NCBI GenBank assembly: GCA_017523305.1
Contig: JAFWWV010000077.1
Coordinates: forward strand, 1-63,008
Length of the DNA stretch: 63,008 nucleotides
Origin: Clostridia bacterium
GTDB taxonomy: Bacteria > Bacillota > Clostridia > Christensenellales > UBA1242
Direction of reading: 5' to 3'
The translations under genes and the position numbers were made by a program. The notes beneath the pieces are model-generated. The model made no database searches and was not told where the DNA came from. It saw nothing but the letters and a program-made list of their open reading frames with translations. The stretch's first letter is position 1, and each line of letters opens with the position of its first letter. Positions 18,019 through 40,288 of this stretch are shown one piece after another.

Positions 18019-18050
18019 AACCTATTAGATTTAGTCTGATAGGTTTTTTT
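18019..18050 (+). terminator. Intrinsic terminator closing the 17-18 kb cassette
   Basis: CCTATTAGA / TCTGATAGG stem (one G-T), 5-nt loop, T7. Confidence 0.75.
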
Positions 18051-18072
18051 ATTTTTTAGCAATTTACAAGGT

Positions 18073-18137
18073 TGTAAATTTTATTTACAAATAGAGTGTA
18101 AATTATATTTACAAAAAAGTTGTAAATTTTTTTTACA
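18073..18137 (+). promoter_or_regulatory. Three phased 17-bp palindromic operators (TGTAAAT-N3-ATTTACA)
   Basis: Sites at 18073-18089 (perfect), 18097-18113 (perfect) and 18121-18137 (one mismatch). Centre-to-centre spacing is exactly 24 bp. An extra half site ATTTACA sits at 18062-18068. Confidence 0.75.
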
Positions 18138-18143
18138 AAGTTG

Positions 18144-18172
18144 TTGACATTTTTAGTTCTTTGTGTTATTAT
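18144..18172 (+). promoter_or_regulatory. Sigma-A-type promoter of the 22-kb operon
   Basis: TTGACA 18144-18149, 17-nt spacer, TATTAT 18167-18172. It lies 6 nt downstream of the last operator. Confidence 0.65.
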
Positions 18173-18204
18173 ACTTATAGCAAAATTAGTATGAGGTGAA
18201 ATTT

Positions 18205-18564
18205 ATGGTAACAGAAATTGGAAAGTTCTTAAGAGTTATTAGAGCTGAAAGAGGCGAGTCTGCTAGGGATATGGCCGAGAAAATGAATGTTTCGGCTTCA
18301 TATTTGTCTGCTGTAGAACTTGGTAGGAGAGAATTTCCTTTGGCTTGGGAGCAAACCTTAATCGAAGTCTATAACTTAAATGAGGCAAACAAGAAAAAAT
18401 TGCAAAAAGCAATAAAGGATTCAAAAACCAATGTAAAGTTTGACCTTAATGAAGTTGGCAACAAGAAAAAGGACTTAATACTTTCAGTTGCGAAGAATAA
18501 CCTTGATGACAAAACGATTGAACAGCTTTGCGAAATTATTAAAAAATATGAAGGAGACAAATAA
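18205..18564 (+). CDS. XRE-family HTH transcriptional regulator
   Basis: 'IGKFLRVIRAERGESARDMAEKMNVSASYLSAVELGRR' is a classic XRE HTH. AGGTG 6 nt before ATG 18205. Confidence 0.85.
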   Translation: MVTEIGKFLRVIRAERGESARDMAEKMNVSASYLSAVELGRREFPLAWEQTLIEVYNLNEANKKKLQKAIKDSKTNVKFDLNEVGNKKKDLILSVAKNNLDDKTIEQLCEIIKKYEGDK

Positions 18565-18565
18565 A

Positions 18566-19222
18566 ATGGAAAAATTGATTGCATTAAAAAAAGAAATTGG
18601 AAATGATGTTGTTGTATGGAGTACAGGGGCAGTAAAAATTGATAAGAATACTGCAATCAGTGTTCCAATCAACTATAGAGTAGTTGCCTTGATTGATGGC
18701 AAGATTGCTTTTAGGGTAGACCCTTGCAGTGAAGTAAACATTATCAAGGAATTCGGTAAAGAACTTCTTAAAAAACAAATTGAATTTATTTATGTATTAA
18801 GTAGTGCAATTCCTATGATGAGTTGGGGATTTGGTAACATTAACGTAAATAATGACAGACTTAAAGAAGCATACAGAGTTGGTGCTAACGGAAAATATTC
18901 AATAGAAATAGTTGATATTCCAAAATTGATTAAGAATTTTGCAGGCAAGGCTGAAATTACAATTGATGATATAAGAGAAAAGACCGTTACAATTATCAAA
19001 GCAAACGGAACACAAGTTGTAAGTAAGTATTTCGCTAATACAACAACAAGTGTATTTGAGATAGACTCAAAAATCGGTGAAATAAGAGTTGATATTAAAG
19101 AAGCATTAGTAGATGAACTTTTATTTAAAAACTTTGGCTTGAAGATGACAGACCTTATTGTTGAAGGAATTCACGTAAATGAAGATGACCTACAAGTTAT
19201 AAGAGATAGGTTAAATGGTTAG
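18566..19222 (+). CDS. SPFH/Band-7 protein of the YdjI type (Band_7_1-like)
   Basis: By eye it is collinear with B. subtilis YdjI. Examples are 'KIDKNTAISVPINYRVVALIDGKIAF', 'SWGFGNINVNNDRLKEAYRVGANGKYSIEIVD' and the C-terminal 'FGLKMTDLIVEGIHVNEDD'. Starts 2 nt after the XRE stop. Confidence 0.6.
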   Translation: MEKLIALKKEIGNDVVVWSTGAVKIDKNTAISVPINYRVVALIDGKIAFRVDPCSEVNIIKEFGKELLKKQIEFIYVLSSAIPMMSWGFGNINVNNDRLKEAYRVGANGKYSIEIVDIPKLIKNFAGKAEITIDDIREKTVTIIKANGTQVVSKYFANTTTSVFEIDSKIGEIRVDIKEALVDELLFKNFGLKMTDLIVEGIHVNEDDLQVIRDRLNG

Positions 19223-19232
19223 GAGGAAAAAT

Positions 19233-20297
19233 ATGAAAAAATATACACCATCAGTTCAAACAAACAATAATTTAAAGAATGAAATTGCAGAAGAACTTAA
19301 TGCAATTATCTTCAAACTTGAAAAAGGTAAATACAATAAGAACTTGGATTCTTCAGCAGTTGCAGGTATTGTTGCTCAATTAAGAGAAGATTACGAAACT
19401 CTTACTAATGCAATTGGTAACGGAAAAGAAGATATTAATAATATCTACACAAAAACAAAGAAATACATTGAAGCATTGAAACAAGAAATTGAACAAACTC
19501 TTACTACAAAACTTGAAAAAGCAGTAGAAGATTTGTCATTCACAGTTAATATGTGGACAGAAGTATTAAATGGAAATCTTGTAGATGTTGACGCAGATGA
19601 AACAAAAGTTAAATTGAGTTGGTCAAAGAAAAGACTTAATGCAAAACTTCAAGAATTAAGATTAATCAAACTTGATTATCAAAAGAATGAACAAAGAATT
19701 GAAGGCGATATTAAGGGAATTGAAAAAGAACTTGCTGAACTTGAAAACAAGATGGTTGCCGAAGAAAATGAAAGAATTATAAATGAACTTTATAGACAAA
19801 TCACAGCAGCTAAAAGCAAGATTGACGCCTTAAATATCAGAAGGGGTAACTATTCAGTTTGCTTTAACTTAATTGATATGATTGATGTAAATATCAATGA
19901 AATTGTTATGGCAGGTGAATATGCTACATCTGAACTTAACAAGGCTAAAGGAATGCTTAATATGGGTAGAATTAGAGAAACTGCTGTAAACCCTGAAAAA
20001 GCAATTCCTATCTTAAGAGTTCTTCAAGATGACTTAAATAAGATTAATGAAAAAGTAAAATCTGTTGACAATAAAATCTTTGGTAGAGTAGAAGGTCAAG
20101 CAACAATTACAAATGACGCTATGAACTACAAAGAAGAACTTATGAGAAAGAAAAGAGAAAAAGAACAATTAGCAAATGCTATGAGTGAAATGGATACAAA
20201 GTTGGCTAATCCAACAGTTGCTGCTGAACCTAAAAAAGCAACAACAGAAGATTTCTTAAAAGCATTAGATGATTTAAACGGTGGGGAGGATAAATAA
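19233..20297 (+). CDS. Coiled-coil protein (355 aa), possibly PspA/ESCRT-III-superfamily-like
   Basis: Almost entirely heptad-like helical sequence. Acidic amphipathic tail 'EDFLKALDDLNGGEDK'. AGGAGG RBS. Confidence 0.4.
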   Translation: MKKYTPSVQTNNNLKNEIAEELNAIIFKLEKGKYNKNLDSSAVAGIVAQLREDYETLTNAIGNGKEDINNIYTKTKKYIEALKQEIEQTLTTKLEKAVEDLSFTVNMWTEVLNGNLVDVDADETKVKLSWSKKRLNAKLQELRLIKLDYQKNEQRIEGDIKGIEKELAELENKMVAEENERIINELYRQITAAKSKIDALNIRRGNYSVCFNLIDMIDVNINEIVMAGEYATSELNKAKGMLNMGRIRETAVNPEKAIPILRVLQDDLNKINEKVKSVDNKIFGRVEGQATITNDAMNYKEELMRKKREKEQLANAMSEMDTKLANPTVAAEPKKATTEDFLKALDDLNGGEDK

Positions 20298-20298
20298 G

Positions 20299-20889
20299 AT
20301 GGCATTTTTCAAAACAAAACAAGAAAAAGAAATAATCGCTAAAATGGAACGCGAAGAACAAATGGAAACTTTCAACGAACAAATTAATGAGTTGAAAAGT
20401 AAAAGACAAGAATATGCTAAAATTGCTGCTGAAGCTGAAGTAAATGGTGATACAGGTTCTTATGATGTTGCTGTTAATGCTTTGCTTGAAATGAATGATG
20501 TTATTAGTTCATTAATGCAAACAAAAACAAACTTTGATATTATCAATGTTTCAAATTCAATTGCAGTAACAATGGCAACAGCTATGAATGCTTTGGATAA
20601 AATGGCAAGTGGTAAAGCAAAAATGCCTAACTTAAGAAAAATCCAAAGAACTCAAGTTAAGATGAACAAATATATGAGAGAAATTAAGATTGCTCAAAAA
20701 GCTATGGGTAGCGCTATGAAGCAATCTAACCCTGCAAATAAGACAAGGTCCCCAGAAGCATTGGCTTCAGTAAGACCACTTATCGAAGCGGAAAGAGCAA
20801 AATTATCGCCAACAATGTCTACATCTGTTGGTGCTGATAGCATTAATTTAGCTGAAGAAATCGAAAGAGAAAAGAATAGAATTATTTAA
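20299..20889 (+). CDS. ESCRT-III/Snf7 (CHMP)-like protein
   Basis: Size (196 aa) and helix pattern match ESCRT-III. The N-terminus is a basic helix. Then come 'AEAEVNGDTGSYDVAVNALLEMNDVISSLMQTKTNFDII', 'AVTMATAMNALDKMASGKAKMPNLRKIQRTQVKMNKYMREIKIAQKAMGSAM', a Pro/Ser linker and an acidic amphipathic tail 'INLAEEIEREKNRII'. Assignment by eye only. Confidence 0.55.
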   Translation: MAFFKTKQEKEIIAKMEREEQMETFNEQINELKSKRQEYAKIAAEAEVNGDTGSYDVAVNALLEMNDVISSLMQTKTNFDIINVSNSIAVTMATAMNALDKMASGKAKMPNLRKIQRTQVKMNKYMREIKIAQKAMGSAMKQSNPANKTRSPEALASVRPLIEAERAKLSPTMSTSVGADSINLAEEIEREKNRII

Positions 20890-20903
20890 TCAAGGAGTTT
20901 TCT

Positions 20904-22043
20904 ATGAGTACTGTAATGCAGGTTGAAGCATATAAAAGTTTTTACGAACAAGGAATGAGTGCTTATGATTGTGGTGATGTTTTAAAAGCAAGAGAACTGC
21001 TTTTAAAGGCTGCTGAAATGGCTAATGAAATATCAACTAAATCAGTTTCTTACCAAGTTAAAACAGAGTATAGAAATATTGCTATGAAAATCCTTAATTT
21101 TGTAAAGACAAAATGTGGAAATGAACCACAAAAAAAGGCTGTTAAGTCTGGTGAAACTAAATCAAGTGGTGATGAAGAAAAGACAACAAACTTCCAACCT
21201 GTAAACAATGATGAGAAAATCACTTTTGAAGATGTTGCAGGGTTGCAGGAGGTTAAAGAAGAAATCGAATTTAAAGTTCTTAACCCTTTAAAAAATCCTG
21301 AATTGGCTAAAAAATACAAAATCAATGCAGGTGGAAAACTTCTTCTTTATGGACCACCGGGAACAGGTAAGACCTTTATTGCAAGAGCAATTGCAGGTGA
21401 GGTAGACGCTGTATTTTACTCAATCAATTGTCAAGATTTGATTAGTAAATATATGGGTGAAAGTAGTAAACAATTAGATAAATTGTTTGAAACTGCTTTA
21501 AAAAATGAAAGAGCAATCATCTTCTTTGATGAGTTCGACTCAATTGCTACTAAAAGAGAAAGTAGTAGTGGTGGTGTTGACGCTGAAATGTCAAGATTTG
21601 TTGCCACTTTCTTAACAAAAGTAGATGGATTTACAAAATCTAAAACAAACAAGATGTTGTTACTTATTGCTGCCACAAATAGGCCTTGGGCTCTTGATAA
21701 CGCTATGATTAGAGGTGGAAGATTTGATACTCATATTTATGTAAGTGTACCAGATTCAAATGCTAGAAGATTTATGGTTGAAAAGGCATTTAGAGATGTT
21801 CCAATGAATAGTAATTTTGATTACGCAAAATTGACCGAAATGCTTGATGGTTTTGGTGGTGGTGATATTGTTGCTATTTGTGAAAAAATAAGACTTAAGG
21901 CTTATAAGAAGTCAATTAGAACCGGTGTTGAAGAAAAGGTTTCTATGGAAGATTGCTATGATGTCCTTGCTAAACACCATAATGTTATAACAAGAGAAGA
22001 AATCGAAAGATTTGAAAATTTTCAAAATGGAGATATGGATTAA
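20904..22043 (+). CDS. Classical AAA ATPase (Vps4/katanin/Cdc48 clade) with N-terminal MIT-like three-helix domain
   Basis: The N-terminal ~75 aa are helical ('AYDCGDVLKARELLLKAAEMANE...YRNIAMKILNFVK'), followed by a low-complexity linker. 'FEDVAGLQEVKEEI', Walker A 'GPPGTGKTF', pore loop 'KYMGES', Walker B 'IIFFDEFD', SRH 'ATNRPWALDNAMIRGGRFD'. Confidence 0.75.
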   Translation: MSTVMQVEAYKSFYEQGMSAYDCGDVLKARELLLKAAEMANEISTKSVSYQVKTEYRNIAMKILNFVKTKCGNEPQKKAVKSGETKSSGDEEKTTNFQPVNNDEKITFEDVAGLQEVKEEIEFKVLNPLKNPELAKKYKINAGGKLLLYGPPGTGKTFIARAIAGEVDAVFYSINCQDLISKYMGESSKQLDKLFETALKNERAIIFFDEFDSIATKRESSSGGVDAEMSRFVATFLTKVDGFTKSKTNKMLLLIAATNRPWALDNAMIRGGRFDTHIYVSVPDSNARRFMVEKAFRDVPMNSNFDYAKLTEMLDGFGGGDIVAICEKIRLKAYKKSIRTGVEEKVSMEDCYDVLAKHHNVITREEIERFENFQNGDMD

Positions 22044-22871
22044 ATGATATACGAATTAACAAAATGTAAAGTATGTGGTTCGGAAGATTTAGTACAAACC
22101 GATAAAGAAATTGTTGGTCTTGATACTTACATTGTTTATAGATGTAAGTCTTGCGACTCAATCGTTTCAAAGGAAAGACCTAGAAAAACATCTGTAAAAG
22201 AAGAAAATAACACTTCTAAACCTGTTTTTAGTGGGGTTGAGATAAGTCCTGCGGAATTGTATGAAAAGAACCATAAAACACTATATTCTATCAATAGTGT
22301 ACTTGAAAATGAGGATAGAAGTTGTGGAACTGCTTTTGCAATAGGAAGTAATGGTTATCTTCTAACAAATGCACATGTTGTTACAAGAGTTAGTTCTGAA
22401 GAAGATGGTGAAGTTAATTTTGAAATTAATGATGATATAACTGCTACATCATTTAATGGTGAGGTTGCAGATTGTGAGTTAATTGACCTAGATTTAGTTT
22501 TAGATTTAGCTTTGCTTAAGATAAACAAAAGAAATAACTATTCAGTTAAACTTGGTTCTTACGAAACAGTTAAGACAGGTGAAAAAGTTGTTTCTATTGG
22601 AAATAGTAAAGGTGAAGGAATGTCTATCACAGAAGGTCTAGTAAGTGATAGAGCAAGAAATTTAGGAAATCAAACAAAGATTTTGATAAGTGTGCCAATT
22701 AATCACGGAAATAGTGGTGGACCTTTATTTAATATGAAAGGTCAAGTAATTGGTGTTGTTGCTTCAGGTAAAAAGAATGCAGTTGCTATGAGCTATGCAA
22801 TTCCGGTTGATGAAGTACTAAAATTTATCAAAAGAATTGAAGTAGACCAAGAAATTAAAGTATTAAATTAA
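22044..22871 (+). CDS. Cytoplasmic Zn-ribbon fused to a trypsin-like (S1/HtrA-type) serine protease, no PDZ domain
   Basis: 'CKVCGS...CKSCDS'. Catalytic His 'LTNAHVV', Asp 'DLALLKI', Ser 'GNSGGPLF'. No signal peptide or TM. Its ATG abuts the upstream stop (TAAATG). Confidence 0.8.
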   Translation: MIYELTKCKVCGSEDLVQTDKEIVGLDTYIVYRCKSCDSIVSKERPRKTSVKEENNTSKPVFSGVEISPAELYEKNHKTLYSINSVLENEDRSCGTAFAIGSNGYLLTNAHVVTRVSSEEDGEVNFEINDDITATSFNGEVADCELIDLDLVLDLALLKINKRNNYSVKLGSYETVKTGEKVVSIGNSKGEGMSITEGLVSDRARNLGNQTKILISVPINHGNSGGPLFNMKGQVIGVVASGKKNAVAMSYAIPVDEVLKFIKRIEVDQEIKVLN

Positions 22872-22883
22872 AGGAAAAAACAG

Positions 22884-24176
22884 ATGTCAGTAAATCAAGA
22901 AAAGGAATTTTGTAACAAGAAGTTTAAAGAAGCAATTGTTTACGCTAGAAGGAAAGATGTAAAGAATTGTAGAAGTGCTTTGTTTGTTGTAATGGAATCA
23001 TTACTTAAGATTTCATATCAATTAAAGGGTAATGAAAAAACTGAATGTGAAGAAAAAATTAAATTTATATTAGAAATGGCAAAGACAATTGCTAATGAAG
23101 GTTTTACTGACGATGTTATGTTTAACCTTACTGGTGAATTGCCTAAAAAAGAAGTTGTAGAAAAGAAAGAAATAGTTGAAGAACAAATTGCTCAACCAAC
23201 TGAAATCGAAGATGAGGAAGAATTTGAGGATAACAAGACAAATAATCCTTTAAGACCTACAAGATTAAGAGATTATGTTGGGCAAGACAAAATTAAAAGG
23301 CCTTTGGCTGAAGCAATTTTGGCTGCTAGAACAAAACAAACATCATTAGACCATGTATTGCTGTTCGGTTCTGCAGGTTTAGGTAAAACAACATTAGCAA
23401 GAATTATTGCAAATGAGATGAAATCAAACATTATTGTAATGAATGGACCAACAATTAAGGATACAAATGATTTCATTAAAAATATTAAACAATTAAAAGA
23501 AAATGATATTGTATTTATAGATGAAATACACCGTATTAGCACTAGCGCTGCGGAATCTATATATACTGCTATGGAAGATTTCAAACTTTCATATATAAGA
23601 AACGATGGTAAAAATGTTGAAATGGATTTACCAAAGTTTACATTAATTGGTGCAACTACTCACTCTGGTTTGTTAGAAAAACCTATGAGAGATAGATTTG
23701 CTTTACAATTTAGACTTGAACCATATTCTGTAGATGTGCTTACTCAATTAGGTGTTAAGTCGTTTGAAAAACTTGGATTTAATATTTCGGAAGCTGATAT
23801 GAAAAATATTGCTAAAAGAAGTAGAGGAGTTCCAAGAATTTGTAATGGATTTATCAAGAGAATTTCTGATAAAGCATTAATAAGAAACACGAATGTTATT
23901 GATAAAAAGATTATTGAAGAATACTTTATTGATAACGAAATAGATAGTCTTGGATTAAATGCAGGTGATATTCATCTTCTTAAGACTATAATTAATAAAT
24001 TCAATGGTGGTCCGGTTGGACTTGATACATTAGCTTCGGCTACTGGTGAAGGCAAAAACATCATTGAAAATCAGTATGAACCATACCTAATATATCTTGG
24101 CTTTATAAACATCACACAAAATGGTAGGGTTGCAACTGAACAAGCATACAAACATTTAAAGATTGAAAAATACTAG
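22884..24176 (+). CDS. RuvB-paralog AAA+ ATPase with ~125-aa N-terminal MIT-like helical extension and acidic linker
   Basis: From 'LRPTRLRDYVGQDKIK' onward it is collinear with RuvB. It has Walker A 'GSAGLGKTT', Walker B 'IVFIDEIHR', 'LIGATT', 'RDRF', 'RGVPRI' and the winged-helix 'GGPVGLDTLA...EPYLI..GFI..T..GR'. The N-terminal extension is helical, then 'EIEDEEEFED'. Confidence 0.8.
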   Translation: MSVNQEKEFCNKKFKEAIVYARRKDVKNCRSALFVVMESLLKISYQLKGNEKTECEEKIKFILEMAKTIANEGFTDDVMFNLTGELPKKEVVEKKEIVEEQIAQPTEIEDEEEFEDNKTNNPLRPTRLRDYVGQDKIKRPLAEAILAARTKQTSLDHVLLFGSAGLGKTTLARIIANEMKSNIIVMNGPTIKDTNDFIKNIKQLKENDIVFIDEIHRISTSAAESIYTAMEDFKLSYIRNDGKNVEMDLPKFTLIGATTHSGLLEKPMRDRFALQFRLEPYSVDVLTQLGVKSFEKLGFNISEADMKNIAKRSRGVPRICNGFIKRISDKALIRNTNVIDKKIIEEYFIDNEIDSLGLNAGDIHLLKTIINKFNGGPVGLDTLASATGEGKNIIENQYEPYLIYLGFINITQNGRVATEQAYKHLKIEKY

Positions 24177-24194
24177 AAATAAAGGAGAAGTCCT

Positions 24195-30962: not shown

Positions 30963-31023
30963 TCATCAGATGTTTGGGAAATTACAAATGGCAATTTACC
31001 TACATTAAAAGTGGAAGTGTAAT

Positions 31024-31683
31024 ATGGTAACACAACAAGAATTGCAAAATCTAATACAACGTTTTATAAGAAATATTGAGGATTTGCAATCAATAGTAAA
31101 AAAAGACTATTTAACGGTCAATTCAGACCTTGAAGAACAAGCAAATAATGCTAGTGAACAAGAGTATAATCGACTAATTGAGATTTATACTAGTGAGAAT
31201 GATGATATATCGGCTTTATTAGATAAATCTCAAGAGGTTGGTTTGGAAAAATACTTATTACTTAAAGTAATGAGATATAGGAATCTTGCAAATTGGATAT
31301 GTAATGTAATTGAAATTTGGGAACAACAAATGTATTTGTTATATTCCGAAATAAAGCAAGATGGTAGAAAATTTAATAATTTTAATCAATTAGTTAAAGA
31401 AATTGAAAATTTGGGATTGCAAATTAGTGGTATGATAGAGTATCATAATTTGGAAAATAAAAGACTATTGGTTAATGTTATAAAACATTCAGAAGGTACT
31501 TCTGAAGAAAAATTAAGAAATGAGTGTCCTAAATATTTTGATAATTCGACAGAATTATTTGGGGATATGGATAATCTTAAAACATACAAAACTTCTTTAG
31601 GTGAAGTTGCATTAAACATTACTGAAGAAGATTTTGATGAAACTTGCTTTCAAATAATAGATTTTTGGAAAGCAATATTGTAA
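31024..31683 (+). CDS. Hypothetical cytoplasmic protein (219 aa) between the two TIR giants
   Basis: Clean ORF in operon context. No TM and no motif I recognise. Confidence 0.55.
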   Translation: MVTQQELQNLIQRFIRNIEDLQSIVKKDYLTVNSDLEEQANNASEQEYNRLIEIYTSENDDISALLDKSQEVGLEKYLLLKVMRYRNLANWICNVIEIWEQQMYLLYSEIKQDGRKFNNFNQLVKEIENLGLQISGMIEYHNLENKRLLVNVIKHSEGTSEEKLRNECPKYFDNSTELFGDMDNLKTYKTSLGEVALNITEEDFDETCFQIIDFWKAIL

Positions 31684-31700
31684 TACAAAGGAGAGCTTTA

Positions 31701-34700
31701 ATGGATAATATTTGTAATATCTGTGGTGGCAGTTATGTTTACAAGAATGGCAAGTGGATTTGCTCTTGTTGTGATAACATAAAAAATGAAAAAATTACAA
31801 ATGAAGAAGTTATATTATTGACAAATGCTTCAGCCAAATTAAGAATGGCTGCTTTTGACGATGCCGAAGAATTATATAGGGATTTCGTTAAGAAGTATCC
31901 TAAAAACCCAGAAGGTTACTGGGGACTTCTTTTATCTAAATATGGTATTAAATATGAGGAAGATTACGATGGTAAAAAGGTTCCTACTATTTATGCTACT
32001 AGCATTGAAAGTGTTTTAGAAGATAAAAACTATCAACTTGCTGTAGAATATGCTGATAAAGACCAAAAAAGATATTACAAACAACAAGCTCAACAATTTG
32101 AAAATATAAGACAAGAATGGATTGAGAAGGCGTCTAAAGAGCCACCTGTAGACGTGTTCATCTGTTTTAAAGATAGTGATGAAGAACATAACATTACTAG
32201 AACAGATGATAGTTATGAAGCACAAAACCTTTATACTTATTTGATTTCAAAAGGATACTCTGTATTCTTTAGTAGAGAAAGTTTGCGTGATAAAGTTGCT
32301 GAAAAATATGAACCATATATTTTCAATGCTTTAAATACCGCTAAAGTTATGGTTGTTTATTCTTCTTCAAGAGAATATATGGAATCTACTTGGGTTAAGA
32401 ATGAATGGACTAGATTTTTAAAGAAAATTAAAAATGGTGAAAAACAAAAGAACTCTTTGGTAGTGTCTTTTGAGAAAATGACAGCAAGTGATTTGCCAAA
32501 AGCATTTGCTTCTTGTCAATGTATGGACGCAAGCAAAAAAACTTTCTATGAAGATTTAGATAATCATATTAGAAAGGTAATAAACGAGAGTTCAGTTCCT
32601 ACTACAAAGATTGATAGGGTAGAATTAGGTTCTGCAAAAAAGCAAAAAACAGCGGCTAAAGCGATAGAGAACTTAAAAACAAGGGATTTATCAAAATATA
32701 AAGTTCAACAACTTACAGCTGATGAAAAAACAGAACTAAAAACTGCAAAAATATGCTTAAGTAAAGAATTGTTTGATGACGCTTTGCAATCTGCAAATAG
32801 ACTGTTAGAAATTAATCCAAATAACGGACAAGCTCTATATATCAAACTTTGCGCTGAAGAAAATATTTCTTCTGAAGAAGATTTAGTTGCTAAAGCAGGG
32901 ACAATAAAAAAGATTAATAGATTTGAAACAATAATTGAAAACTCATCTAAAGAGGATTCTATAAATCTTTTAAACATGCTTGTTTCGGGTTGTTCATTAT
33001 TAATTAAGAAAAATAACATTGAAAAAGCATTAGAATATTATAATCTTATAAGTCAATATGATTTTGACTATAAAAACATAGTTGAGGACTTTAAAAACAA
33101 GGCTTATAGACTTGTTGATAGTAAAAACTATAATTTGGTCGAGAGAATAGTTTCAAGCCTTTTAAAGACCATTACGGACACGAATGAGTATCTTGATGTT
33201 CTTAAAAACTTAATCATTGGGTTTAGAAAGAGTGGAGAAAGGGAATTAACTCTTAACTATTGCAAAAAATACATAGAAGTATTTGATTGTGATTACGAAA
33301 TTCTTTGGATTAAATTATGTGCGGAAATTGGTTGTTTAGATGATAGTGTATTACATAACTATATTGCAAACTTAAAAGATTTTGATAGTTTCAAAACAAT
33401 TCTTGAATATTCGCCAACAGAAGAAAAGCGAAATTTGTATATAACAACAACTTTGAATGCTGTTGTTAAGAAAATACAATCTAAAGAAATAGAAAATATT
33501 GAGTTACTTGCAAAAGTTTTTGATGAAGTTATTAAGTATACAAACAAGAAAAACAAAGAAAAAACACTTCAAATTGTTTTAAAAATGGCAAGTGCTTGTC
33601 AACTTAACTATAAATTTGATTTATCTGAAAAGTATTTTGCAATAGCGTTAAGTGAAAATAAGAGTTGCCACGAAGCATATTGGGGATTGCTTCAATCAAA
33701 ATTAAAAGCAAGAAATAATAATGAATTGATTGAACAACCTACAATTATTTCAACAATGCCTGACTTTCATAGTGCAATTGCTGCGGCAGGTGATGATGAG
33801 AGAATTTCAGAAAAATATATCGATATTAAGGCAAAACAATTAAAATATATCGAACATAAAGCTGAAGTTGATAAGGCAAAGAAGAAAAAGAAAAGAAAAA
33901 TTAAAATTATTTCAATAATTGTTGCAATTGCTCTTGCTATTGGCGCAGCTCTTGGTGGGTACGGTGTTTACTATTCATCAGAAAATAAATTACTATATAC
34001 CTTATCTGAAGATGGAAAGGGTTATATTGTTTCTGCAGGAAAGTTTTATGATGAAAATGTTATAACAATTCCTGAAACTTATAACGGTAAAGAAGTCATT
34101 GGTATTGCTGAAAATGCCTTTAAAAACAAAAACTTAACAAGTTTAAATATTCCTAGTACTGTACAAGAAATTGATGACAATGCTTTCTATGGTTGTGATA
34201 ATCTAGCAAATATCAAATTTGATGGAACTTTATATCAAGGAATTTATTCATCAGACCTTACAACAATCGGAAACTATGCATTCTATGGTTGTTCTGAATT
34301 AAAGACCGTTCAATTACCAGAATCAGTAGAAAGTGTTGGAAAATATGCTTTTGCTAATTGTAATAAATTAAATTCAATCAACTTAACAAGTAATATTTCA
34401 GAATTACCTGAAGGTTTATTTGAAAATTCTTTCTCTTATACAATTTCATCAATATCTATACCTGAAAATATTGATTATATTGGAAAAAATGTATTTAATA
34501 ATTGTACAAAGTTAAGTAAAATATTTATAGATGAACGTGAAGAAATACCACATAATTGGGATAATAATTGGTGTGGAAACAATACAAACAATTATGAGAT
34601 TATTTGGACTTTGAAAGTAGATTTAAACTATAATGGTGGAACATCTACATCAAATAAAACAAGTATATCTGTTGTTTTAGGTGAAAATTTTGAATGTCCT

Positions 34701-37700
34701 GTTCCTACAAAGTTAGGATATATCTTTGAAGGTTGGGGATATACTAAAAATGAGCAATTTACTTTGTTGACCGATGAAGAAGGTTTATCAAGAAATGCTT
34801 GGAATATTGAAGAAGACATAACTTTAACTGCTAAATGGACTGCAAGAGATTATGAAATTACTTATCACTTAAATGGTGGGGAAAATCATACTCAAAATCC
34901 AAGTTCATTTACAATTGAAACTGATACATTTGAATTGTTTAATCCAACAAGAAGTTATTATGAATTTGAAGGTTGGTATACAAACGAATTATTAACTAAT
35001 CCAATTACATCTATAACAAAAGGAACAACTGGACATATAGATGTTTATGCTAAATGGACACCTATCGAATATGATATTACATACGTAATGAATGGTGGTA
35101 CTAATAATAATTTGAACCCTAACACCTACAATGTAGAAACATATTTTGATTTTGAAAATCCATTTAAAAAAGGTTTTGAATTTAAGGGTTGGTTCACAGA
35201 CAGCGAATTTAATAACGAAATTTCAAGATTAAATAGACAATATCTTGGTGATATAGCACTTTATGCTAAATGGGAAATTATTACTTATCCAATTAATTAT
35301 GAATTAAATGGTGGTACTAATAATGTTGGAAACAAATCAAATTATACAGTTGAAACAGACACATTTAGTTTATTAAATCCAACTCGTGAACATTATACTT
35401 TTGGCGGTTGGTTTAATGATAATTCATACACAAGTGAATTAAATTCTATCGAAAAGGGTACAATAGGACAAAAAACACTTTATGCTAAATGGACACCAAT
35501 TGAATATAATATTACTTACATCTTAAATGGTGGTACAAACAATAATCAAAATCCAAATACTTACAATGTAGAAGATGAGATAATATTTGCAGAACCTACA
35601 AGAAATGGTTATAGCTTTAAAGGTTGGTTCACAGATAGCGAATTTAATAATGAAATTACAAACATAAATAGAGAATTTTTAGACGAAATTACTCTTTATG
35701 CTGAATGGGAAATTATTACTTATCCAATTAATTATGAATTAAATGGTGGTACTAATAATCCTGAAAATAAATCTAATTATACAATTGAAACTGATACATT
35801 TGAATTAAAAAATCCTACTAGAGAACATTATTCATTTAACGGTTGGTATGATTTTGTATTTGATACAAGAGTTACTGAAGTAACAAAGGGAACTTTTGGT
35901 GAAAAGACATTCTGCGCAAGATGGACACCTATCGAATATGATATTAATTATGTCTTGAATGGTGGAACTAATAATGCACAAAATCCTACAACATATAATG
36001 TAGAAGATAGTTTTGTATTTAAGACACCAACAAAAACAGCATATACCTTTATGGGTTGGTTTAGTAATGAGGAATTAACTCAAGAATTTTCTTCATTAAA
36101 TAGTCAATATTATGGTGAAATTACTCTTTATGCGAAGTGGACACCAACAACATATAATATTGGATATGCTATGAATGGTGGTACAAACAATCCTTTAAAT
36201 CCAACATCATATAATGTTGAAAGTGAAGATATAATTCTTCAGAATCCTACAAAATCAGGATATGATTTTAGATGTTGGTACTTGAATGGTGTTATTGTAG
36301 ATAGAATAACTACAGGAACTTATGGTAATTTGGTTCTTACACCTGTATTTGACGCTATTTTTGAAGTCTCAAGCGGAACAATAAACGGTCTAACAGAATA
36401 TGGAAAAAATACATATAATGAGATTGTGATACCTGAAGAAATACACGGAAACACAATAACAAAAATTTCTTCAGCTGCCTTTAAAGATGATACTTCACTT
36501 ACAAAAGTTGAAATTCCTGCAACTGTAACAAGTATAGGGAATGGTGCATTTAGTGGTTGTTCTTCCTTAACGGATATTGTAATTCCTTTTGTTGGTGGAA
36601 ATTCTACATCAAGCAATTCAACAAGTGCTGTTTTTGGATATATATTTGGAACACAATCATACGAAGGTTCAACAAAAACAACACAACAATATAGGTCTCA
36701 AGGCTCATACTCAACATATACAGAAACTTTTTATATTCCAACTTCACTAAAAAATGTAAAAGTTTTAAATGGTGATTTGAAATATGGAGCTTTCCATAAT
36801 TGTGTTGACTTGGAAAATATTGAAATTATGAATGCTACACTAATAGATAGTTATGGCGTTAATACTTGTACAAGTTTAAAGACAATAACACTTCCAAAGA
36901 GCTTAACATCAGTTACAGCCTATGCATTCCAATATTCTGATAGTCTTGAAAAGGTTTATTATAAAGGCGAGATAAATGATTGGGCGGTAATTTCATTTGG
37001 TAATAATACATCAAATCCAATGTACTATGCTCAACAATTTTATCTTGAAAGTGATAAAATTAATGAAGTAACAAAATTAAATTTAACTGCAGAAAATATT
37101 GGATACGCGGCTTTCTACGGATTTAATAATGTTGATGAAATTATTATCAATGAAAGTGTAAAAACAATAGGTAACAATGCTTTCTTTGGTTGTTCAAAAG
37201 TTACAACAATTGATGTTCCAACAACAGTAACCAAAATAGGTAGTTCTGCGTTTGGGAATTGGTATAGTTTGGAATCAATTAAACTTCCTTTTGTAGGAAC
37301 AGATAGAACATCAAACGAAAGTACTGCGAGTGTTTTTGGTTATGTCTTTGGTGGAAGTGGTGAGCAAATGACAAGTGTTACACAAAATTATTCGCCATAC
37401 TCAACACATACATATATGCTACCAACAGCATTGAAGACAGTTGAAATATATGATGGAAACTTAAAATATGCAGGATTTAGTGGTTGTACAACATTAGAGA
37501 CTATTGTTATAAGTTCACAAACAACTACATTAACAAGAAGTTTATTTTCTGGTTGTACTAATCTTAAAAATTTAACACTTCCAAAATCAATTAAAACAAC
37601 AGATACCAATGTTTTTAACAATAATAATGCTCTTGATAATGTTTATTACAATGGAACACTTGAAGATTGGAATAAAATTACATTTACTGCAGGTTCTTCA

Positions 37701-40244
37701 AATCCTATGGGGTATGCAGACCACTTCTTTATTAAAAATGGGGAAGATTGGGAAGAAGTTACAGAACTTGATTTGACAGATTTAGAAACAATAGGTGATT
37801 ATGCATTCTATGGATTTAATAATATAACAACAATCAATTTATCTACAAACTTACAAACTATAGGAACATATTCTTTTGCTTATTGTAGTAATGTTAATGA
37901 GATAGTTGTTCCTGATTCTGTTACGGGAATTGGATATAATGCTTTTGGTGCATGTACATCATTGGCAACTATAACATTACCATTTGTTGGGGCAAGCACA
38001 ACTGCAACGGGTTCTTCAAATATTTTAGGATTCTTATTTGATATAAATACTGAAGGCACAACTGCAACTCATCAACAATATTCAAGTAGTTCTTCTGATA
38101 CCAAATTTATTCCAACAACATTGAAAACAGTAAACATTTCAGGTGGAAAAATTGGATATGGAACATTCTATAACTGTGAAACAATAGAAACTATTAGTTT
38201 ATCTGATTCCATTACAAATCTTGGAATTTATTCATTTTACGGTTGTACAAAACTTAAAAATATCAATATTCCGGGAGTTGTAACAATACAAGATAAGGCT
38301 TTCTATCAATGTACAACCCTTGAAAGTATTACATTGCCTAAATCTATTAAAACAATTAAAGATGGAGCTTTTGTAACCAATTCATCATTATTTACCAATG
38401 TTTACTTTAAAGGTACAATAAATGAATGGGCTAATATTGCATTTGCTTCTTCAACAGCAAATCCACTATATAGCGCTGAACATTTATATATTGAAGAAAG
38501 TGAAGGTGTATGGAAAGAAATTAATTCATTAGATTTGACTGGTTTGGAAACAATTAGTGAGTATTCTTTCTATGGCTTTGAAGGCCTTTCAGAACTAGTT
38601 ATAGGAAATACTTTAAAGATTATACCAACATCTGCATTCTATAGTTGTATTAACCTAATAAAACTTGATTTAACAGGTGTTGAACAAATCAATAATTCCG
38701 CATTCTATGATTGTGATAGTTTATCTTATTTAATAATTCCTGATAGTGTTAAAACGATAGATAAGAAAGCCTTTGGTTATTCTGCAAATTTGAAATATGT
38801 CTATATTTCTGATTCTGTAACAACAATTAAAACAGGTTCAGATGATGACTATTCACCATTTGTTGGTTGTTCAAATGTGGCTTTCTATTGTGAAGGTTCA
38901 AAGGCTCAATCTGGTTGGGAATCATATTGGAATATATCAAGAACACCTAATTATGAAATTGAAATAGAAGAATTTATGTTTATTGCTGACTTTAAAGCTG
39001 AAAATTATACATTAATTGATGGTGTTTATTATTACATTAGCTCTGATAAGACTATAGTTTATGCTTTAGGTGTTGATGATAAGACAATGACAGATATAAC
39101 TCTATATTCAAAAACTACAAGAATAGGATTTAAAGCATTTAGTGGTTGTACAAAACTTAAAAATATTACCTTAAGAAGCACAATTAAGAGAATATCGGAT
39201 AAAGCCTTTGAGAGTTGTTCTACACTTACAAATGTTTATTATGATGGCACAATTGAAGATTGGTGCAATGTAACAATTGGAAATATTTCTGCAGAAACAT
39301 CATTCTTTACAACACCAATGTACTATGCAGACCACTTCTTTATTAAAAATGGGGAAGATTGGGAAGAAGTTACAGAATTAGTTATTCCTGATAGTATTAC
39401 TGAAATTGGTTTATTGCAATTTTATGGGTTTGAATATCTAACATCAGTAATTATTCCAAGTTCAGTAACACGTATTAATAATTGTGCATTCTATAATTGC
39501 TTAAGAGTTACTAATTTAACAATTGGCGAAAATGTAACATATATCGGAAATAGAGCATTCTATGATTGTGATAAATTAACATCAATATATATACCAAAAT
39601 CGGTTGTTGATATATCTGCTTCAGCAAACAACTATTCGCCATTTTTTGGTTGCTCAAGTAGTTTAAAAATTTACTGTGGAGTAAATAGTAAACTAGATGG
39701 TTGGGGAAAATATTGGAATTGTTACTATGCTACATCAAATAGTAATAATAGTTATTTGACTGCTTATTATGATTATGAGTATGAAGAATATCTATTTGCA
39801 ATAGCAACAGATAAATCATCATTTACATTGATTGATAATGTTTACTATTACATTAATGAAGATGAGAGTAAAGTTTATGCTTTAGGTGTAAGTGATAAAA
39901 CAGCTTCTGAAATCGTTCTTGATGAGAGAACAACAAGAATTTCGCCAATAGCATTTAAAAATTGTACAGCATTGACTTCTATTGTTATTCCTGAAAATGT
40001 AGAGTATATTGCGCTTGACGCGTTTACAGGTAGTACTAATTTAACAACTGTATATGTTGATAGTACTGATATTTACAATTCATTGGAATCTAAATATTCT
40101 TGCGGAAGTGTATTTGAAAACTCATCTATCATCTATGTTTTACAACAAATTGTAAACACAGAAACTTCTAATGAATACCTTAATAATGCCGATGTATTTA
40201 ACAAGGTAGAAGAAGGGGAATACTTTAAATACTCACGTATTTAA
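31701..40244 (+). CDS. Second giant TIR/TM/LRR protein (2847 aa), paralog of 24195-30962 with a different ectodomain
   Basis: ATG 31701 follows AAAGGAGAG. It has the same Zn-ribbon/TPR/TIR layout (TIR nt 32148-32570). TM aa 735-757 (nt 33903-33971) follows 'KAKKKKKRK'. LRR_5 ~33990-34560. About 11 Flg_new repeats ('Y.I.Y.LNGG.NN..NP..Y..E' ... 'LYAKWTPI') at 34610-36350. Then repeated BspA-type LRR cassettes run to the end. Confidence 0.85.
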   Translation: MDNICNICGGSYVYKNGKWICSCCDNIKNEKITNEEVILLTNASAKLRMAAFDDAEELYRDFVKKYPKNPEGYWGLLLSKYGIKYEEDYDGKKVPTIYATSIESVLEDKNYQLAVEYADKDQKRYYKQQAQQFENIRQEWIEKASKEPPVDVFICFKDSDEEHNITRTDDSYEAQNLYTYLISKGYSVFFSRESLRDKVAEKYEPYIFNALNTAKVMVVYSSSREYMESTWVKNEWTRFLKKIKNGEKQKNSLVVSFEKMTASDLPKAFASCQCMDASKKTFYEDLDNHIRKVINESSVPTTKIDRVELGSAKKQKTAAKAIENLKTRDLSKYKVQQLTADEKTELKTAKICLSKELFDDALQSANRLLEINPNNGQALYIKLCAEENISSEEDLVAKAGTIKKINRFETIIENSSKEDSINLLNMLVSGCSLLIKKNNIEKALEYYNLISQYDFDYKNIVEDFKNKAYRLVDSKNYNLVERIVSSLLKTITDTNEYLDVLKNLIIGFRKSGERELTLNYCKKYIEVFDCDYEILWIKLCAEIGCLDDSVLHNYIANLKDFDSFKTILEYSPTEEKRNLYITTTLNAVVKKIQSKEIENIELLAKVFDEVIKYTNKKNKEKTLQIVLKMASACQLNYKFDLSEKYFAIALSENKSCHEAYWGLLQSKLKARNNNELIEQPTIISTMPDFHSAIAAAGDDERISEKYIDIKAKQLKYIEHKAEVDKAKKKKKRKIKIISIIVAIALAIGAALGGYGVYYSSENKLLYTLSEDGKGYIVSAGKFYDENVITIPETYNGKEVIGIAENAFKNKNLTSLNIPSTVQEIDDNAFYGCDNLANIKFDGTLYQGIYSSDLTTIGNYAFYGCSELKTVQLPESVESVGKYAFANCNKLNSINLTSNISELPEGLFENSFSYTISSISIPENIDYIGKNVFNNCTKLSKIFIDEREEIPHNWDNNWCGNNTNNYEIIWTLKVDLNYNGGTSTSNKTSISVVLGENFECPVPTKLGYIFEGWGYTKNEQFTLLTDEEGLSRNAWNIEEDITLTAKWTARDYEITYHLNGGENHTQNPSSFTIETDTFELFNPTRSYYEFEGWYTNELLTNPITSITKGTTGHIDVYAKWTPIEYDITYVMNGGTNNNLNPNTYNVETYFDFENPFKKGFEFKGWFTDSEFNNEISRLNRQYLGDIALYAKWEIITYPINYELNGGTNNVGNKSNYTVETDTFSLLNPTREHYTFGGWFNDNSYTSELNSIEKGTIGQKTLYAKWTPIEYNITYILNGGTNNNQNPNTYNVEDEIIFAEPTRNGYSFKGWFTDSEFNNEITNINREFLDEITLYAEWEIITYPINYELNGGTNNPENKSNYTIETDTFELKNPTREHYSFNGWYDFVFDTRVTEVTKGTFGEKTFCARWTPIEYDINYVLNGGTNNAQNPTTYNVEDSFVFKTPTKTAYTFMGWFSNEELTQEFSSLNSQYYGEITLYAKWTPTTYNIGYAMNGGTNNPLNPTSYNVESEDIILQNPTKSGYDFRCWYLNGVIVDRITTGTYGNLVLTPVFDAIFEVSSGTINGLTEYGKNTYNEIVIPEEIHGNTITKISSAAFKDDTSLTKVEIPATVTSIGNGAFSGCSSLTDIVIPFVGGNSTSSNSTSAVFGYIFGTQSYEGSTKTTQQYRSQGSYSTYTETFYIPTSLKNVKVLNGDLKYGAFHNCVDLENIEIMNATLIDSYGVNTCTSLKTITLPKSLTSVTAYAFQYSDSLEKVYYKGEINDWAVISFGNNTSNPMYYAQQFYLESDKINEVTKLNLTAENIGYAAFYGFNNVDEIIINESVKTIGNNAFFGCSKVTTIDVPTTVTKIGSSAFGNWYSLESIKLPFVGTDRTSNESTASVFGYVFGGSGEQMTSVTQNYSPYSTHTYMLPTALKTVEIYDGNLKYAGFSGCTTLETIVISSQTTTLTRSLFSGCTNLKNLTLPKSIKTTDTNVFNNNNALDNVYYNGTLEDWNKITFTAGSSNPMGYADHFFIKNGEDWEEVTELDLTDLETIGDYAFYGFNNITTINLSTNLQTIGTYSFAYCSNVNEIVVPDSVTGIGYNAFGACTSLATITLPFVGASTTATGSSNILGFLFDINTEGTTATHQQYSSSSSDTKFIPTTLKTVNISGGKIGYGTFYNCETIETISLSDSITNLGIYSFYGCTKLKNINIPGVVTIQDKAFYQCTTLESITLPKSIKTIKDGAFVTNSSLFTNVYFKGTINEWANIAFASSTANPLYSAEHLYIEESEGVWKEINSLDLTGLETISEYSFYGFEGLSELVIGNTLKIIPTSAFYSCINLIKLDLTGVEQINNSAFYDCDSLSYLIIPDSVKTIDKKAFGYSANLKYVYISDSVTTIKTGSDDDYSPFVGCSNVAFYCEGSKAQSGWESYWNISRTPNYEIEIEEFMFIADFKAENYTLIDGVYYYISSDKTIVYALGVDDKTMTDITLYSKTTRIGFKAFSGCTKLKNITLRSTIKRISDKAFESCSTLTNVYYDGTIEDWCNVTIGNISAETSFFTTPMYYADHFFIKNGEDWEEVTELVIPDSITEIGLLQFYGFEYLTSVIIPSSVTRINNCAFYNCLRVTNLTIGENVTYIGNRAFYDCDKLTSIYIPKSVVDISASANNYSPFFGCSSSLKIYCGVNSKLDGWGKYWNCYYATSNSNNSYLTAYYDYEYEEYLFAIATDKSSFTLIDNVYYYINEDESKVYALGVSDKTASEIVLDERTTRISPIAFKNCTALTSIVIPENVEYIALDAFTGSTNLTTVYVDSTDIYNSLESKYSCGSVFENSSIIYVLQQIVNTETSNEYLNNADVFNKVEEGEYFKYSRI

Positions 40245-40259
40245 AAAATAAAAGAAAAG

Positions 40260-40288
40260 TCCAAAACGAAAAGTTTTGGATTTTTTTT
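40260..40288 (+). terminator. Strong intrinsic terminator closing the 22-kb operon
   Basis: TCCAAAAC (40260-40267) / GTTTTGGA (40273-40280), 5-nt loop, T8. Confidence 0.85.

Follow-up and report, generated by a model that had tools for sequence, protein, structure and literature searches.

A conserved bacterial gene cluster linking ESCRT-III-like and Vps4-like proteins to TIR proteins

Introduction

ESCRT-III polymers are disassembled by Vps4 through contacts between MIT domains and MIT-interacting motifs (MIMs). According to reviews, ESCRT components can be recognised in archaea "but not in bacteria" (PMC10936438), and a Vps4-like ATPase acting with ESCRT-III "appears absent in bacteria" (PMC7619361). 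Here we describe a ten-gene block in 63,008 nucleotides (nt) of DNA from a Clostridia bacterium (Christensenellales, UBA1242; GenBank assembly GCA_017523305.1, contig JAFWWV010000077.1, positions 1 to 63,008 of the forward strand), a stretch that is called the window throughout. The block encodes, in order, an XRE-family regulator, an SPFH protein, a coiled-coil protein, an ESCRT-III-like protein, a Vps4-like AAA ATPase, a serine protease, a RuvB paralogue and two giant TIR proteins separated by an orphan gene. The finding is an ESCRT-III/Vps4-type module in bacteria that is coupled to TIR effectors. No published description of the gene set was found in open-access papers and bioRxiv, in agreement with a model's earlier reading of the letters alone (hereafter, the sequence-only reading), which had proposed an undescribed system. 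Coordinates are positions in the window, and all ten genes are on the + strand.

In Bacillus subtilis, the soluble SPFH protein YdjI and the membrane proteins YdjG and YdjH are required for PspA to reach the membrane (PMC8581546). As in pspA-ydjGHI, a soluble SPFH gene of the Band_7_1/YdjI type here adjoins an ESCRT-III-superfamily-like gene, both products lack transmembrane helices and would need membrane partners, and a Zn-ribbon starts the membrane partner (YdjG MIISYKCPNC, read from a primer sequence in PMC8581546). The two differ in that the ESCRT-III-like protein of the block is not PspA_IM30 by sequence and is accompanied by an additional invariant coiled-coil protein. The block also has MIT-AAA ATPases, a protease and TIR domains, all of them lacking in pspA-ydjGHI, which is controlled by sigma-W, whereas the block is under XRE control.

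With regard to the polymer cycle, archaeal and eukaryotic ESCRT-III with Vps4 (CdvB/CdvC) comes closest. The likeness comprises a helical-hairpin subunit with a C-terminal helix after a flexible linker, and an adjoining single-cassette classical AAA with an MIT domain and a Vps4_C-type tail; archaeal "Meth_adaptin" ESCRT loci also have SPFH, coiled-coil and Zn-ribbon partners (PMC10936438). In contrast, the hosts here are bacteria (gut Firmicutes), ESCRT-I/II, CdvA and wH components are absent, the ATPase is not a CdvC orthologue, and TIR proteins, a trypsin-like protease and an interchangeable second motor (Vps4-type or RuvB-type) are present. A PSP survey noted bacterial VPS4-like ATPases for which snf7 was replaced by a TPR protein with six transmembrane helices (PMC11237479). 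By description, these resemble the block in linking a bacterial Vps4-like AAA to a TPR-containing membrane protein, but the block keeps its ESCRT-III-like gene and has TIR on the membrane partner.

Two further systems share parts with the block. In the anti-phage system IetAS, a classical AAA is directly followed by a serine protease, and PADLOC IetA matches the first AAA of the block (149 bits). IetS, however, is a subtilase and not a trypsin-like protease; the protease here is a trypsin-like S1 enzyme (Trypsin_2) with a Zn-ribbon, the AAA has an N-domain of MIT fold, and at least five further genes are conserved. The pair was therefore rejected as IetAS: the AAA scored 127 bits against the NCBIfam IteA equivalog (NF042959; cut-off 510), and the IetA match reflects general AAA similarity. 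With TIR immunity (Thoeris ThsB, TIR effectors) the block shares a TIR_2 domain with the conserved Glu of the S.W..xE motif. Thoeris itself was also rejected, as there was no ThsA-type partner, only a weak match to ThcB4 (22.7 bits vs. 220) and no PADLOC Thoeris match for the cytoplasmic regions. The TIR proteins of the window are laid out in the style of a Toll-like receptor, with a leucine-rich-repeat (LRR) ectodomain, a single transmembrane helix and a cytoplasmic TIR on one chain; unlike in the receptor, the order is inverted (TIR is N-terminal) and many orthologous loci do without the LRR ectodomain.

Results

The ESCRT-III-like protein and its neighbouring ATPase

What was computed directly comprises the operon architecture, the domain and fold assignments, the integrity of the catalytic motifs (ATPases, protease and TIR), co-occurrence and modularity. 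The gene at 20299-20889 encodes a 196-aa protein (N-terminus MAFFKTK), which was examined with an AlphaFold model and Foldseek. The AlphaFold2 (AF2) model, based on 30 homologues, was all-helical, with helices at residues 7-49, 52-106, 112-142, 152-169 and 184-195 and a disordered linker of low pLDDT at residues 172-184. When the model was compared with the PDB, the ESCRT-III superfamily (ESCRT-III/CdvB/PspA/Vipp1) accounted for the top nine matches and for 31 of the top 50, among them CHMP2A/3, CdvB, CdvB2, Asgard ESCRT-IIIB, CHMP1B, Vps24, CHMP3, Shrub, PspA and Vipp1. On this model, the protein probably has an ESCRT-III-like fold and is a candidate homologue of ESCRT-III. By sequence profile it does not fall within the superfamily (Snf7/PspA/Vipp1). 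The protein had no match in Pfam, NCBIfam or PADLOC, a PDB sequence-profile search gave nothing relevant, and hhalign against Escherichia coli PspA, a low-power single-sequence test, gave a probability of 0.2%. Thus, the identification of the 20299 ORF (open reading frame) as Snf7/ESCRT-III-like in the sequence-only reading is probably right at the level of the fold and finds no support at that of sequence profiles, where Snf7 and PspA were unmatched.

The family of the 196-aa protein is without database annotation (626 clusters at 90% identity, a Pfam domain in none) and narrow (42 clusters at 50% identity, out of 1.8 billion representatives). Its alignments showed a conserved N-terminus (MAFFK.K) and a conserved C-terminal amphipathic helix (20839-20886; L..EI.AEKN(R/K)II; ..L..EIE.EKNRII) that is preceded by a variable linker rich in Pro, Ser and Thr. 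The MIM of ESCRT-III proteins sits at the same C-terminal position, and by analogy the helix is a candidate MIM.

The next gene (20904-22043) encodes a Vps4-like ATPase of 379 aa with one classical AAA cassette (Pfam AAA, 135 bits). Walker A (K156, GPPGTGKT), Walker B (E210, IIFFDE), pore loop 1 (KYMGE, 182-186) and the Arg-finger motif (RGGRFD, 270-275) were all present, as in single-cassette classical AAA proteins. The cassette was as close to Cdc48, PAN and FtsH as to CdvC. Residues 17-374 aligned to 18-365 of the 370 positions of NCBIfam CdvC (NF041006) with 184 bits; the protein was not accepted as a CdvC orthologue, the equivalog cut-off being 650.

The N-domain of this ATPase (residues 1-75, 20904-21128) was modelled by AF2 with 38 orthologues as a three-helix bundle (pLDDT 91.6; helices 3-22, 26-46 and 50-70). 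Its first six Foldseek matches were MIT domains of Vps4A, Vps4B, SKD1 and archaeal CdvC, and the titles of 21 of the top 50 named an MIT domain, for instance that of NRBF2, calpain-7, MITD1, spartin or katanin p60. The best TM-score was 0.85 at a root-mean-square deviation of 1.3 Å, and the model thus has the fold of an MIT three-helix bundle. Five more of the top 50 matches were oomycete chitin synthases, which are presumably MIT-domain carriers. At the sequence level, searches of the N-domains against Pfam, NCBIfam and PDB profiles gave a single TPR-like match and no Pfam MIT. The C-terminal 35 residues matched Vps4_C (PF09336) with 19.5 bits (E = 1e-3), under the cut-off of 21.3. Four orthologues scored 16.2-20.6 bits, so that all five first AAAs, including that of the window, were below the cut-off. 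The second AAA found in many sister loci (406-483 aa) scored 22.3-29.7 bits and exceeded the cut-off in five of five cases. The Vps4-like MIT-AAA proposed for 20904 in the sequence-only reading is therefore upheld by the modelled MIT fold, with Vps4_C just short of its cut-off.

These results bear on whether the block is a system at all. It could be a composite of independent units, that is, an IetAS-like AAA and protease pair, TIR/adhesin genes and an unrelated SPFH and coiled-coil pair, in which the 196-aa protein is a mere coiled-coil protein and not ESCRT-III. The PADLOC IetA match, the lack of sequence-level support for ESCRT-III, the non-significant Foldseek E-values and the separability of the modules (some loci have the first four genes only) speak for such a composite. 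We regard it as highly improbable, since linkage and gene order hold across 41 species with junctions of 0-18 nt, and the NCBIfam score for the AAA is far from its cut-off. In addition, two independent fold searches returned matching partners, ESCRT-III for one protein and Vps4/CdvC MIT for its neighbour, and the Vps4_C matches agree with an ESCRT-III/Vps4 pairing.

Conservation and modularity

A scan of one genome per species gave 41 loci, and the six-frame ORFs of the loci were scored with the window proteins. The cluster was carried by 41 species-level genomes, all of them metagenome-assembled genomes (MAGs) of uncultured gut, rumen or digester bacteria; the hosts were Clostridia (Christensenellales, Oscillospiraceae) and Bacilli (Anaeroplasma, Acholeplasmatales), with a patchy distribution. 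The gene contexts of individual homologues displayed the same block. The co-occurrence that the sequence-only reading had asked for was thus found. Unrelated folds for the 20299 ORF and a lack of co-occurrence, which it had named as grounds for rejection, were looked for, and neither was seen.

The SPFH and coiled-coil genes lay 5′ of the 196-aa gene in all 31 loci with enough upstream sequence, and the XRE gene in 26 of these. Among the 29 loci with at least 8 kb downstream, TIR genes were the most frequent (26), followed by the MIT-AAA (21), the protease (17), the second AAA (7) and the RuvB-like gene (2); one of the 29 had no TIR, Vps4-like AAA or protease gene. In several cases of seeming absence, a giant gene occupied the entire scanned flank. 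In three loci (L018, L057 and L058), ATPase, protease and TIR genes were absent from the vicinity and only a quartet was present (XRE, an SPFH of 497 aa, coiled-coil, ESCRT-III-like); two of these loci (L057 and L058) adjoined a Mob_Pre relaxase. The cluster is therefore made up of two modules, one invariant (XRE, SPFH, coiled-coil and ESCRT-III-like genes) and one variable (ATPases, protease, TIR proteins). The core does not include the RuvB paralogue, the 219-aa orphan or the second giant, which are additions of particular lineages.

The protease and the second motor

The protease gene (22044-22871) encodes a trypsin-like serine protease of 275 aa (Pfam Trypsin_2, 92.5 bits). Its N-terminal part has a Zn-ribbon (C8-C37), and its triad (H111/D154/S224) is intact. 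The protein has no transmembrane helix or signal-like segment, in keeping with the cytoplasmic Zn-ribbon S1 protease of the sequence-only reading. The gene was directly 3′ of the Vps4-like AAA gene in the window and in most related loci, and in a few a TIR gene lay between them. The Zn-ribbon was present in all 23 orthologues, and the same N-terminal type occurs in the TIR proteins (hhalign probability 96.7%). Because Zn-ribbons are simple, this is weak evidence of a link between the protease and the TIR proteins.

The RuvB paralogue (22884-24176, 430 aa) matched NCBIfam RuvB with 362 bits (cut-off 282) over residues 113-428, with the Pfam domains RuvB_N, lid and RuvB_C, and has a helical N-domain of approximately 90-110 aa (22884-23228). 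No ruvA adjoined the gene within the window. Its N-domain was matched by the N-domain of the Vps4_C-bearing second AAA of sister loci with an hhalign probability of 99.2% (E = 1.6e-19). The consensus of this adaptor domain was ..CN..Y..AI...E....LL.A..LL..I....VY..LTG, and on the Vps4_C-bearing AAA the domain was found at L005:10587-10976 and in six other loci. The adaptor showed no demonstrable homology to MIT: the hhalign probability against the MIT-like domain was 7% for the RuvB-like N-domain and 30% for that of the second AAA. The claim of two MIT-like AAA+ ATPases in the sequence-only reading is thus not established for the RuvB-like protein.

Since the RuvB-like N-domain is homologous to that of the Vps4_C-bearing AAA, the RuvB-like gene appears to be a lineage-specific motor swap on a common adaptor domain. 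It would be a recruited paralogue rather than a housekeeping enzyme because of its extra N-domain, the lack of an adjacent ruvA, its presence in only 2 of 29 loci and the HEPN fusion found there. In two Bacilli MAGs (L046:6158-7792 and L047:8765-10387), the RuvB-like protein had 540-544 aa, and its C-terminus matched RiboL-PSP HEPN with 27.7 bits, just under the cut-off of 28.4; this would be a RuvB-type motor fused to a putative RNase. The sequences thus point to two ATPase slots, A with the MIT-AAA (normally with the Zn-ribbon protease) and B with the second adaptor domain on an interchangeable motor. The motor of slot B was a Vps4-type AAA in most loci and RuvB-type in the window and the two Bacilli MAGs.

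The TIR proteins

Giant 1 (24195-30962, 2255 aa) has, in order, a Zn-ribbon, a TPR hairpin, a TIR domain (24642-25064), a helical region, a transmembrane helix (26394-26450) and an LRR_5/Flg_new/Glug ectodomain, as seen from Pfam, a transmembrane and motif scan, and a TIR alignment. Giant 2 (31701-40244, 2847 aa; Pfam, transmembrane and motif scan) is its paralogue (44% identity over approximately 1400 aa), with the same cytoplasmic module (TIR at 32148-32570), one transmembrane helix (33900-33956) and an LRR_5/Flg_new ectodomain. In both, approximately 430 residues of helical region separate TIR_2 from the transmembrane helix (residues 734-752). TIR_2 scored 39.2 and 37.5 bits, respectively, against a Pfam cut-off of 28. 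The TIR Glu (WVKNEW) was E236 in giant 1 (24900-24902) and E235 in giant 2 (32403-32405), and the motif S.W(V/M/I).NEW, including the Glu, was kept in nearly all of approximately 30 aligned TIR-bearing paralogues. We take the conserved Glu of the S.W..xE motif, following published TIR work, to be the catalytic residue. With a TIR domain and this Glu, both giants are predicted to be NAD+-consuming enzymes.

The reading frame of giant 1 ends at a TAG (30960-30962), which leaves a 61-nt gap to the next gene. After this TAG, the frame continues for 19 codons (SSDVWEITNGNLPTLKVEV; 30963-31022, + strand) up to a TAA (31020-31022). By its translation, SSDVWEITNGNLPTLKVEV looks like the former or natural C-terminus of such a surface protein, cut off by a nonsense change; the in-frame TAG points to read-through, an error of assembly or a nonsense change of recent date. 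The orphan gene that follows (31024-31683, 219 aa) had no match in Pfam, NCBIfam or PADLOC and no relatives detected in the 48 loci scored (L001-L048). A gene of equal length between the TIR genes of L061 showed no similarity and was rejected as its relative. In that metagenomic locus (L061:1-9983), at least three TIR genes and an LRR-only gene (DUF6273) stand in a row upstream of the AAA-protease pair, with a MoxR-like AAA_5 gene and a VWA gene downstream.

In related loci, the TIR proteins were anchored in three ways. Some had one transmembrane helix and an LRR_5/Flg_new ectodomain of 0.5-2.4 thousand residues, many orthologues had 2-4 C-terminal transmembrane helices and no ectodomain, and a few were wholly without a transmembrane helix. 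The copy number per locus ranged from 1 to at least 4, and the ectodomains were highly variable. The constant part of the TIR proteins therefore appears, from these comparisons, to be the cytoplasmic Zn-ribbon/TPR/TIR module and not the surface part. The sequence-only reading had supposed that ectodomain engagement is relayed to the TIR domain. Such a relay is not general; it could apply to a subset of loci only, many TIR orthologues being without ectodomain or transmembrane helix.

The giant ectodomains raise the alternative of a machine for cargo sorting, turnover or vesicle shedding of membrane-anchored surface proteins. ESCRT-III-like filaments and Vps4-like ATPases would make the membrane bud outward, so that patches with the giant LRR/Flg_new proteins are released or removed, and the AAA-protease pair would extract and degrade them. 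The topology fits ESCRT-type outward budding, and a sorting role has been proposed for archaeal loci in which ESCRT genes accompany SPFH, coiled-coil and Zn-ribbon proteins (PMC10936438). In the same direction, the giants are adhesin-like, one has an M23 peptidase domain, and the AAA cassette is as near to known unfoldases as to CdvC. We nevertheless think this quite unlikely: the TIR proteins of many loci lack an ectodomain and hence an obvious cargo, the cytoplasmic Zn-ribbon-TIR module is constant and the surface part is not, and most hosts have a Gram-positive wall.

The SPFH and coiled-coil proteins

The SPFH protein (18566-19222, 218 aa) is of the YdjI type (Pfam Band_7_1, PF13421, 39 bits vs. 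a cut-off of 24), and without a transmembrane helix or hydrophobic segment it agrees with soluble YdjI-type SPFH/Band 7 proteins in both respects. In many loci (L008:1366-2895, L030:6029-8161 and approximately ten others), the SPFH protein was longer (450-710 aa), with a long helical C-terminal extension. This extension had a weak apolipoprotein-like match and is missing from the 218-aa protein of the window. The constant partner of the SPFH protein is a helical/coiled-coil protein of 354 aa (19233-20297), which matched nothing in Pfam, NCBIfam or PADLOC and gave only coiled-coil noise in a PDB profile search. It was ruled out as a paralogue of the ESCRT-III-like family (hhalign probability 0.2%).

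Given the PspA-YdjI precedent (PMC8581546), the cluster could also be a Psp-like system of envelope stress and membrane repair without any part in immunity. The membrane would be stabilised or resealed by the SPFH, coiled-coil and ESCRT-III-like proteins, the Vps4-like ATPase would recycle the polymer, the protease would clear damaged parts, and the TIR proteins would serve only as anchors or scaffolds in the manner of YdjG and YdjH. This would fit the presence of module 1 (the SPFH, coiled-coil and ESCRT-III-like proteins) alone in some genomes, the location of some loci amid housekeeping genes, the need of soluble SPFH and ESCRT-III-like proteins for a membrane anchor, and the many wall-less or genome-reduced hosts (Anaeroplasma, Acholeplasmatales) in which membrane integrity is critical. 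A pure scaffold, however, has no need of a strongly conserved TIR motif with its putative catalytic Glu. The HEPN fusion, the neighbourhoods of defence genes and mobile elements, the great variation in the number of TIR paralogues and in their ectodomains, and the XRE/operator control, which is typical of mobile cassettes, point away from repair as well, and we think a function confined to it unlikely.

Transcription and regulation

G+C makes up approximately 30% of the window, and almost all of its genes are read from the + strand. The ORF listing showed ten closely packed ORFs at 18205-40244, with junctions at 18564/18566, 19222/19233, 20297/20299, 20889/20904, 22043/22044, 22871/22884, 24176/24195 and 31683/31701. 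All the junctions given in the sequence-only reading were recovered except 31022/31024, which is displaced by the in-frame TAG of giant 1. The first gene (18205-18564) encodes an XRE-family HTH regulator of 119 aa (Pfam HTH_31, 35.8 bits), which is likely an autorepressor of the operon.

An intrinsic terminator of the upstream gene was found at 18018-18056 (+ strand; hairpin 18018-18046 with a 13-bp stem, a loop and a T-run; 1 found vs. 0.1 expected in shuffled sequence) and would shield the operon from upstream transcription. It is followed by three 24-nt direct repeats in exact 24-nt phasing (18068-18139; 83-100% identity in a repeat search), each with a palindrome, TGTAAAT-N5-ATTTACA. The repeats abut the -35 box and are putative operators for the XRE repressor. 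The best promoter of the region was of the Sigma-70 type (18144-18172, + strand; TTGACA-17-TATTAT with an extended -10 TG, 11 of 12 matches). Downstream of the block, the hairpin search gave a second terminator (40260-40288, + strand), an 8-bp stem hairpin (40260-40280) followed by T8. Terminator-like sites within the block were not enriched (6 found vs. 5.5 expected in shuffled sequence). Because of the promoter/terminator frame and the lack of an excess of internal terminator-like sites, the ten-gene block is consistent with one transcription unit.

The single-operon architecture of the sequence-only reading is thus borne out by the gene packing, one strong promoter and the flanking terminators. 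Its promoter with three phased operators beside the XRE gene and its two framing terminators were located, and all of its domain calls that Pfam can test (XRE, Band_7_1, AAA, Trypsin_2, RuvB, TIR/LRR) stand.

Genomic neighbourhood

Immediately upstream of the block is a defence-type cluster (9144-17988). It comprises a protein of 969 aa whose C-terminus faintly resembles Cas4, an overlapping UvrD helicase gene (GajB-like, 141 bits), a PAPS reductase that carries Fer4 (BrxP-like, 276 bits) and a cysteine desulfurase (SspA/DndA-like). A protein of 255 aa that weakly matched PD-T4-3 and a Cys-rich protein of 80 aa also lie there. The cluster may be an unclassified DNA-modification or helicase system. 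Further upstream, positions 1-9100 hold chromosomal genes (the C-terminal part of Lon, tRNA-Thr at 5004-5079, rsmH and a 525-aa penicillin-binding protein transpeptidase of the dcw cluster). These end at approximately 8.85 kb, where the island starts. An ORF of 102 aa at 8804-9112 is among the few minus-strand ORFs of that size.

In the region downstream (40381-63008), a LexA-like repressor (S24), an HTH protein and a small protein with sigma-70 region 4 come first. A conjugation module follows, made up of a MobL relaxase, a T4 coupling protein, a protein of 1469 aa, an ATPase resembling VirB4/TraG and an LRR_5 protein of 376 aa. From its gene content, this region appears to be an integrated conjugative element that runs off the end of the window, with no integrase seen within the window. 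The adjoining conjugation module had been noted in the sequence-only reading, and its MobL, coupling protein and VirB4 genes were found.

The closest relative (L055) had genes for a KAP NTPase, AbiH and a second trypsin-like protein at its flanks, and its giant (12555-20210) had the Peptidase_M23 domain among LRR/Flg_new repeats. Other loci adjoined resolvase, ImmA/IrrE or Mob_Pre genes. The 22-kb block had no megablast match in PLSDB plasmids or INPHARED phages and appears to be no known plasmid or phage segment. The window matched a 561-kb contig of MAG GCA_965350915.1, and the block is therefore chromosomal.

Discussion

We read the cluster as a horizontally mobile, XRE-autoregulated, membrane-associated conflict system, probably of an anti-phage, anti-plasmid or abortive-infection kind; this reading is tentative, and we place it slightly short of evenly balanced. 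A conflict signature is suggested by the variable TIR copy number and ectodomains, the HEPN fusion, the defence-gene and mobile-element neighbours and the patchy distribution. We infer the immune role of the system, as we do each of its interactions and triggers.

In such a system, module 1 (YdjI-type SPFH, the coiled-coil protein of 340-354 aa and the ESCRT-III-like protein) would polymerise or form a scaffold along the membrane, on its cytoplasmic side. Module 2 would consist of the Vps4-like ATPase with the Zn-ribbon protease, 1-4 membrane-anchored Zn-ribbon-TIR proteins and an optional second motor joined through its own adaptor domain. The TIR membrane proteins would anchor the SPFH/coiled-coil/ESCRT-III-like assembly, as YdjG and YdjH do for YdjI-PspA in B. 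subtilis. Perturbation of the envelope, whether by phage adsorption or DNA entry, by formation of a mating pore or by engagement of the LRR ectodomain where present, would lead to polymerisation and to clustering of the TIR proteins. Oligomerisation activates TIR enzymes, and the clustering would thus turn on the NAD+-consuming activity. The MIT-AAA would bind the C-terminal helix of the ESCRT-III-like protein, pull out subunits and reset the assembly, and degradation of subunits, or cleavage of the TIR proteins, by the protease would make one step irreversible.

Several observations weigh against this proposal. The Foldseek scores of the 196-aa model were weak (best E-value 0.056, TM-scores 0.3-0.57, probability up to 0.99, at a model pLDDT of 71); such scores can be expected for proteins with open and closed conformations, which is not proof. 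Among 18 diverse members, the family had no match to Pfam Snf7 (PF03357) or PspA_IM30 (PF04012) at E ≤ 10. The MIT matches of the N-domain had E-values of 0.15 or worse, because the domain is only 75 residues long. The C-terminal helix is kept in the quartet-only locus L018, with no AAA or TIR gene nearby; the helix may therefore be something other than a MIM, and module 1 can act alone. A DNA motor of the RuvB type is hard to account for in a membrane system, and BspA-type LRR and Flg_new ectodomains are typical of adhesins. In addition, several loci lie amid housekeeping genes (pnp, dnaG-sigA), and no PADLOC model fits the whole system. No relatives were found on IMG/VR viral contigs, a result that was counted on the same side although it is neutral.

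A conflict system of this kind might also be the first bacterial ESCRT-III/Vps4 machine, with a polymer, a MIM-like helix, MIT-AAAs and an SPFH scaffold wired to membrane TIR immune effectors, some of them laid out like a Toll-like receptor (LRR, transmembrane helix, TIR). We consider this possible but doubtful. If true, it would place ESCRT-type polymer dynamics inside prokaryotic immunity, contradict the claimed lack of Vps4-type partners in bacteria and provide a parallel to the control of membrane damage by ESCRT-III in eukaryotic pyroptosis and necroptosis. The exchange of a Vps4-type for a RuvB-type motor on one N-terminal adaptor domain is unusual in itself.

Approximately 40 species-level relatives in common gut Firmicutes pair an unannotated ESCRT-III-like family with AAAs of MIT-fold and Vps4_C type and with an SPFH scaffold. 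If confirmed, this pairing would offer a tractable bacterial model of the ESCRT-III/Vps4 cycle and would bear on whether MIT-MIM recognition is older than archaea or was spread by horizontal transfer. It would also add a new class of membrane-based TIR systems to prokaryotic immunity.

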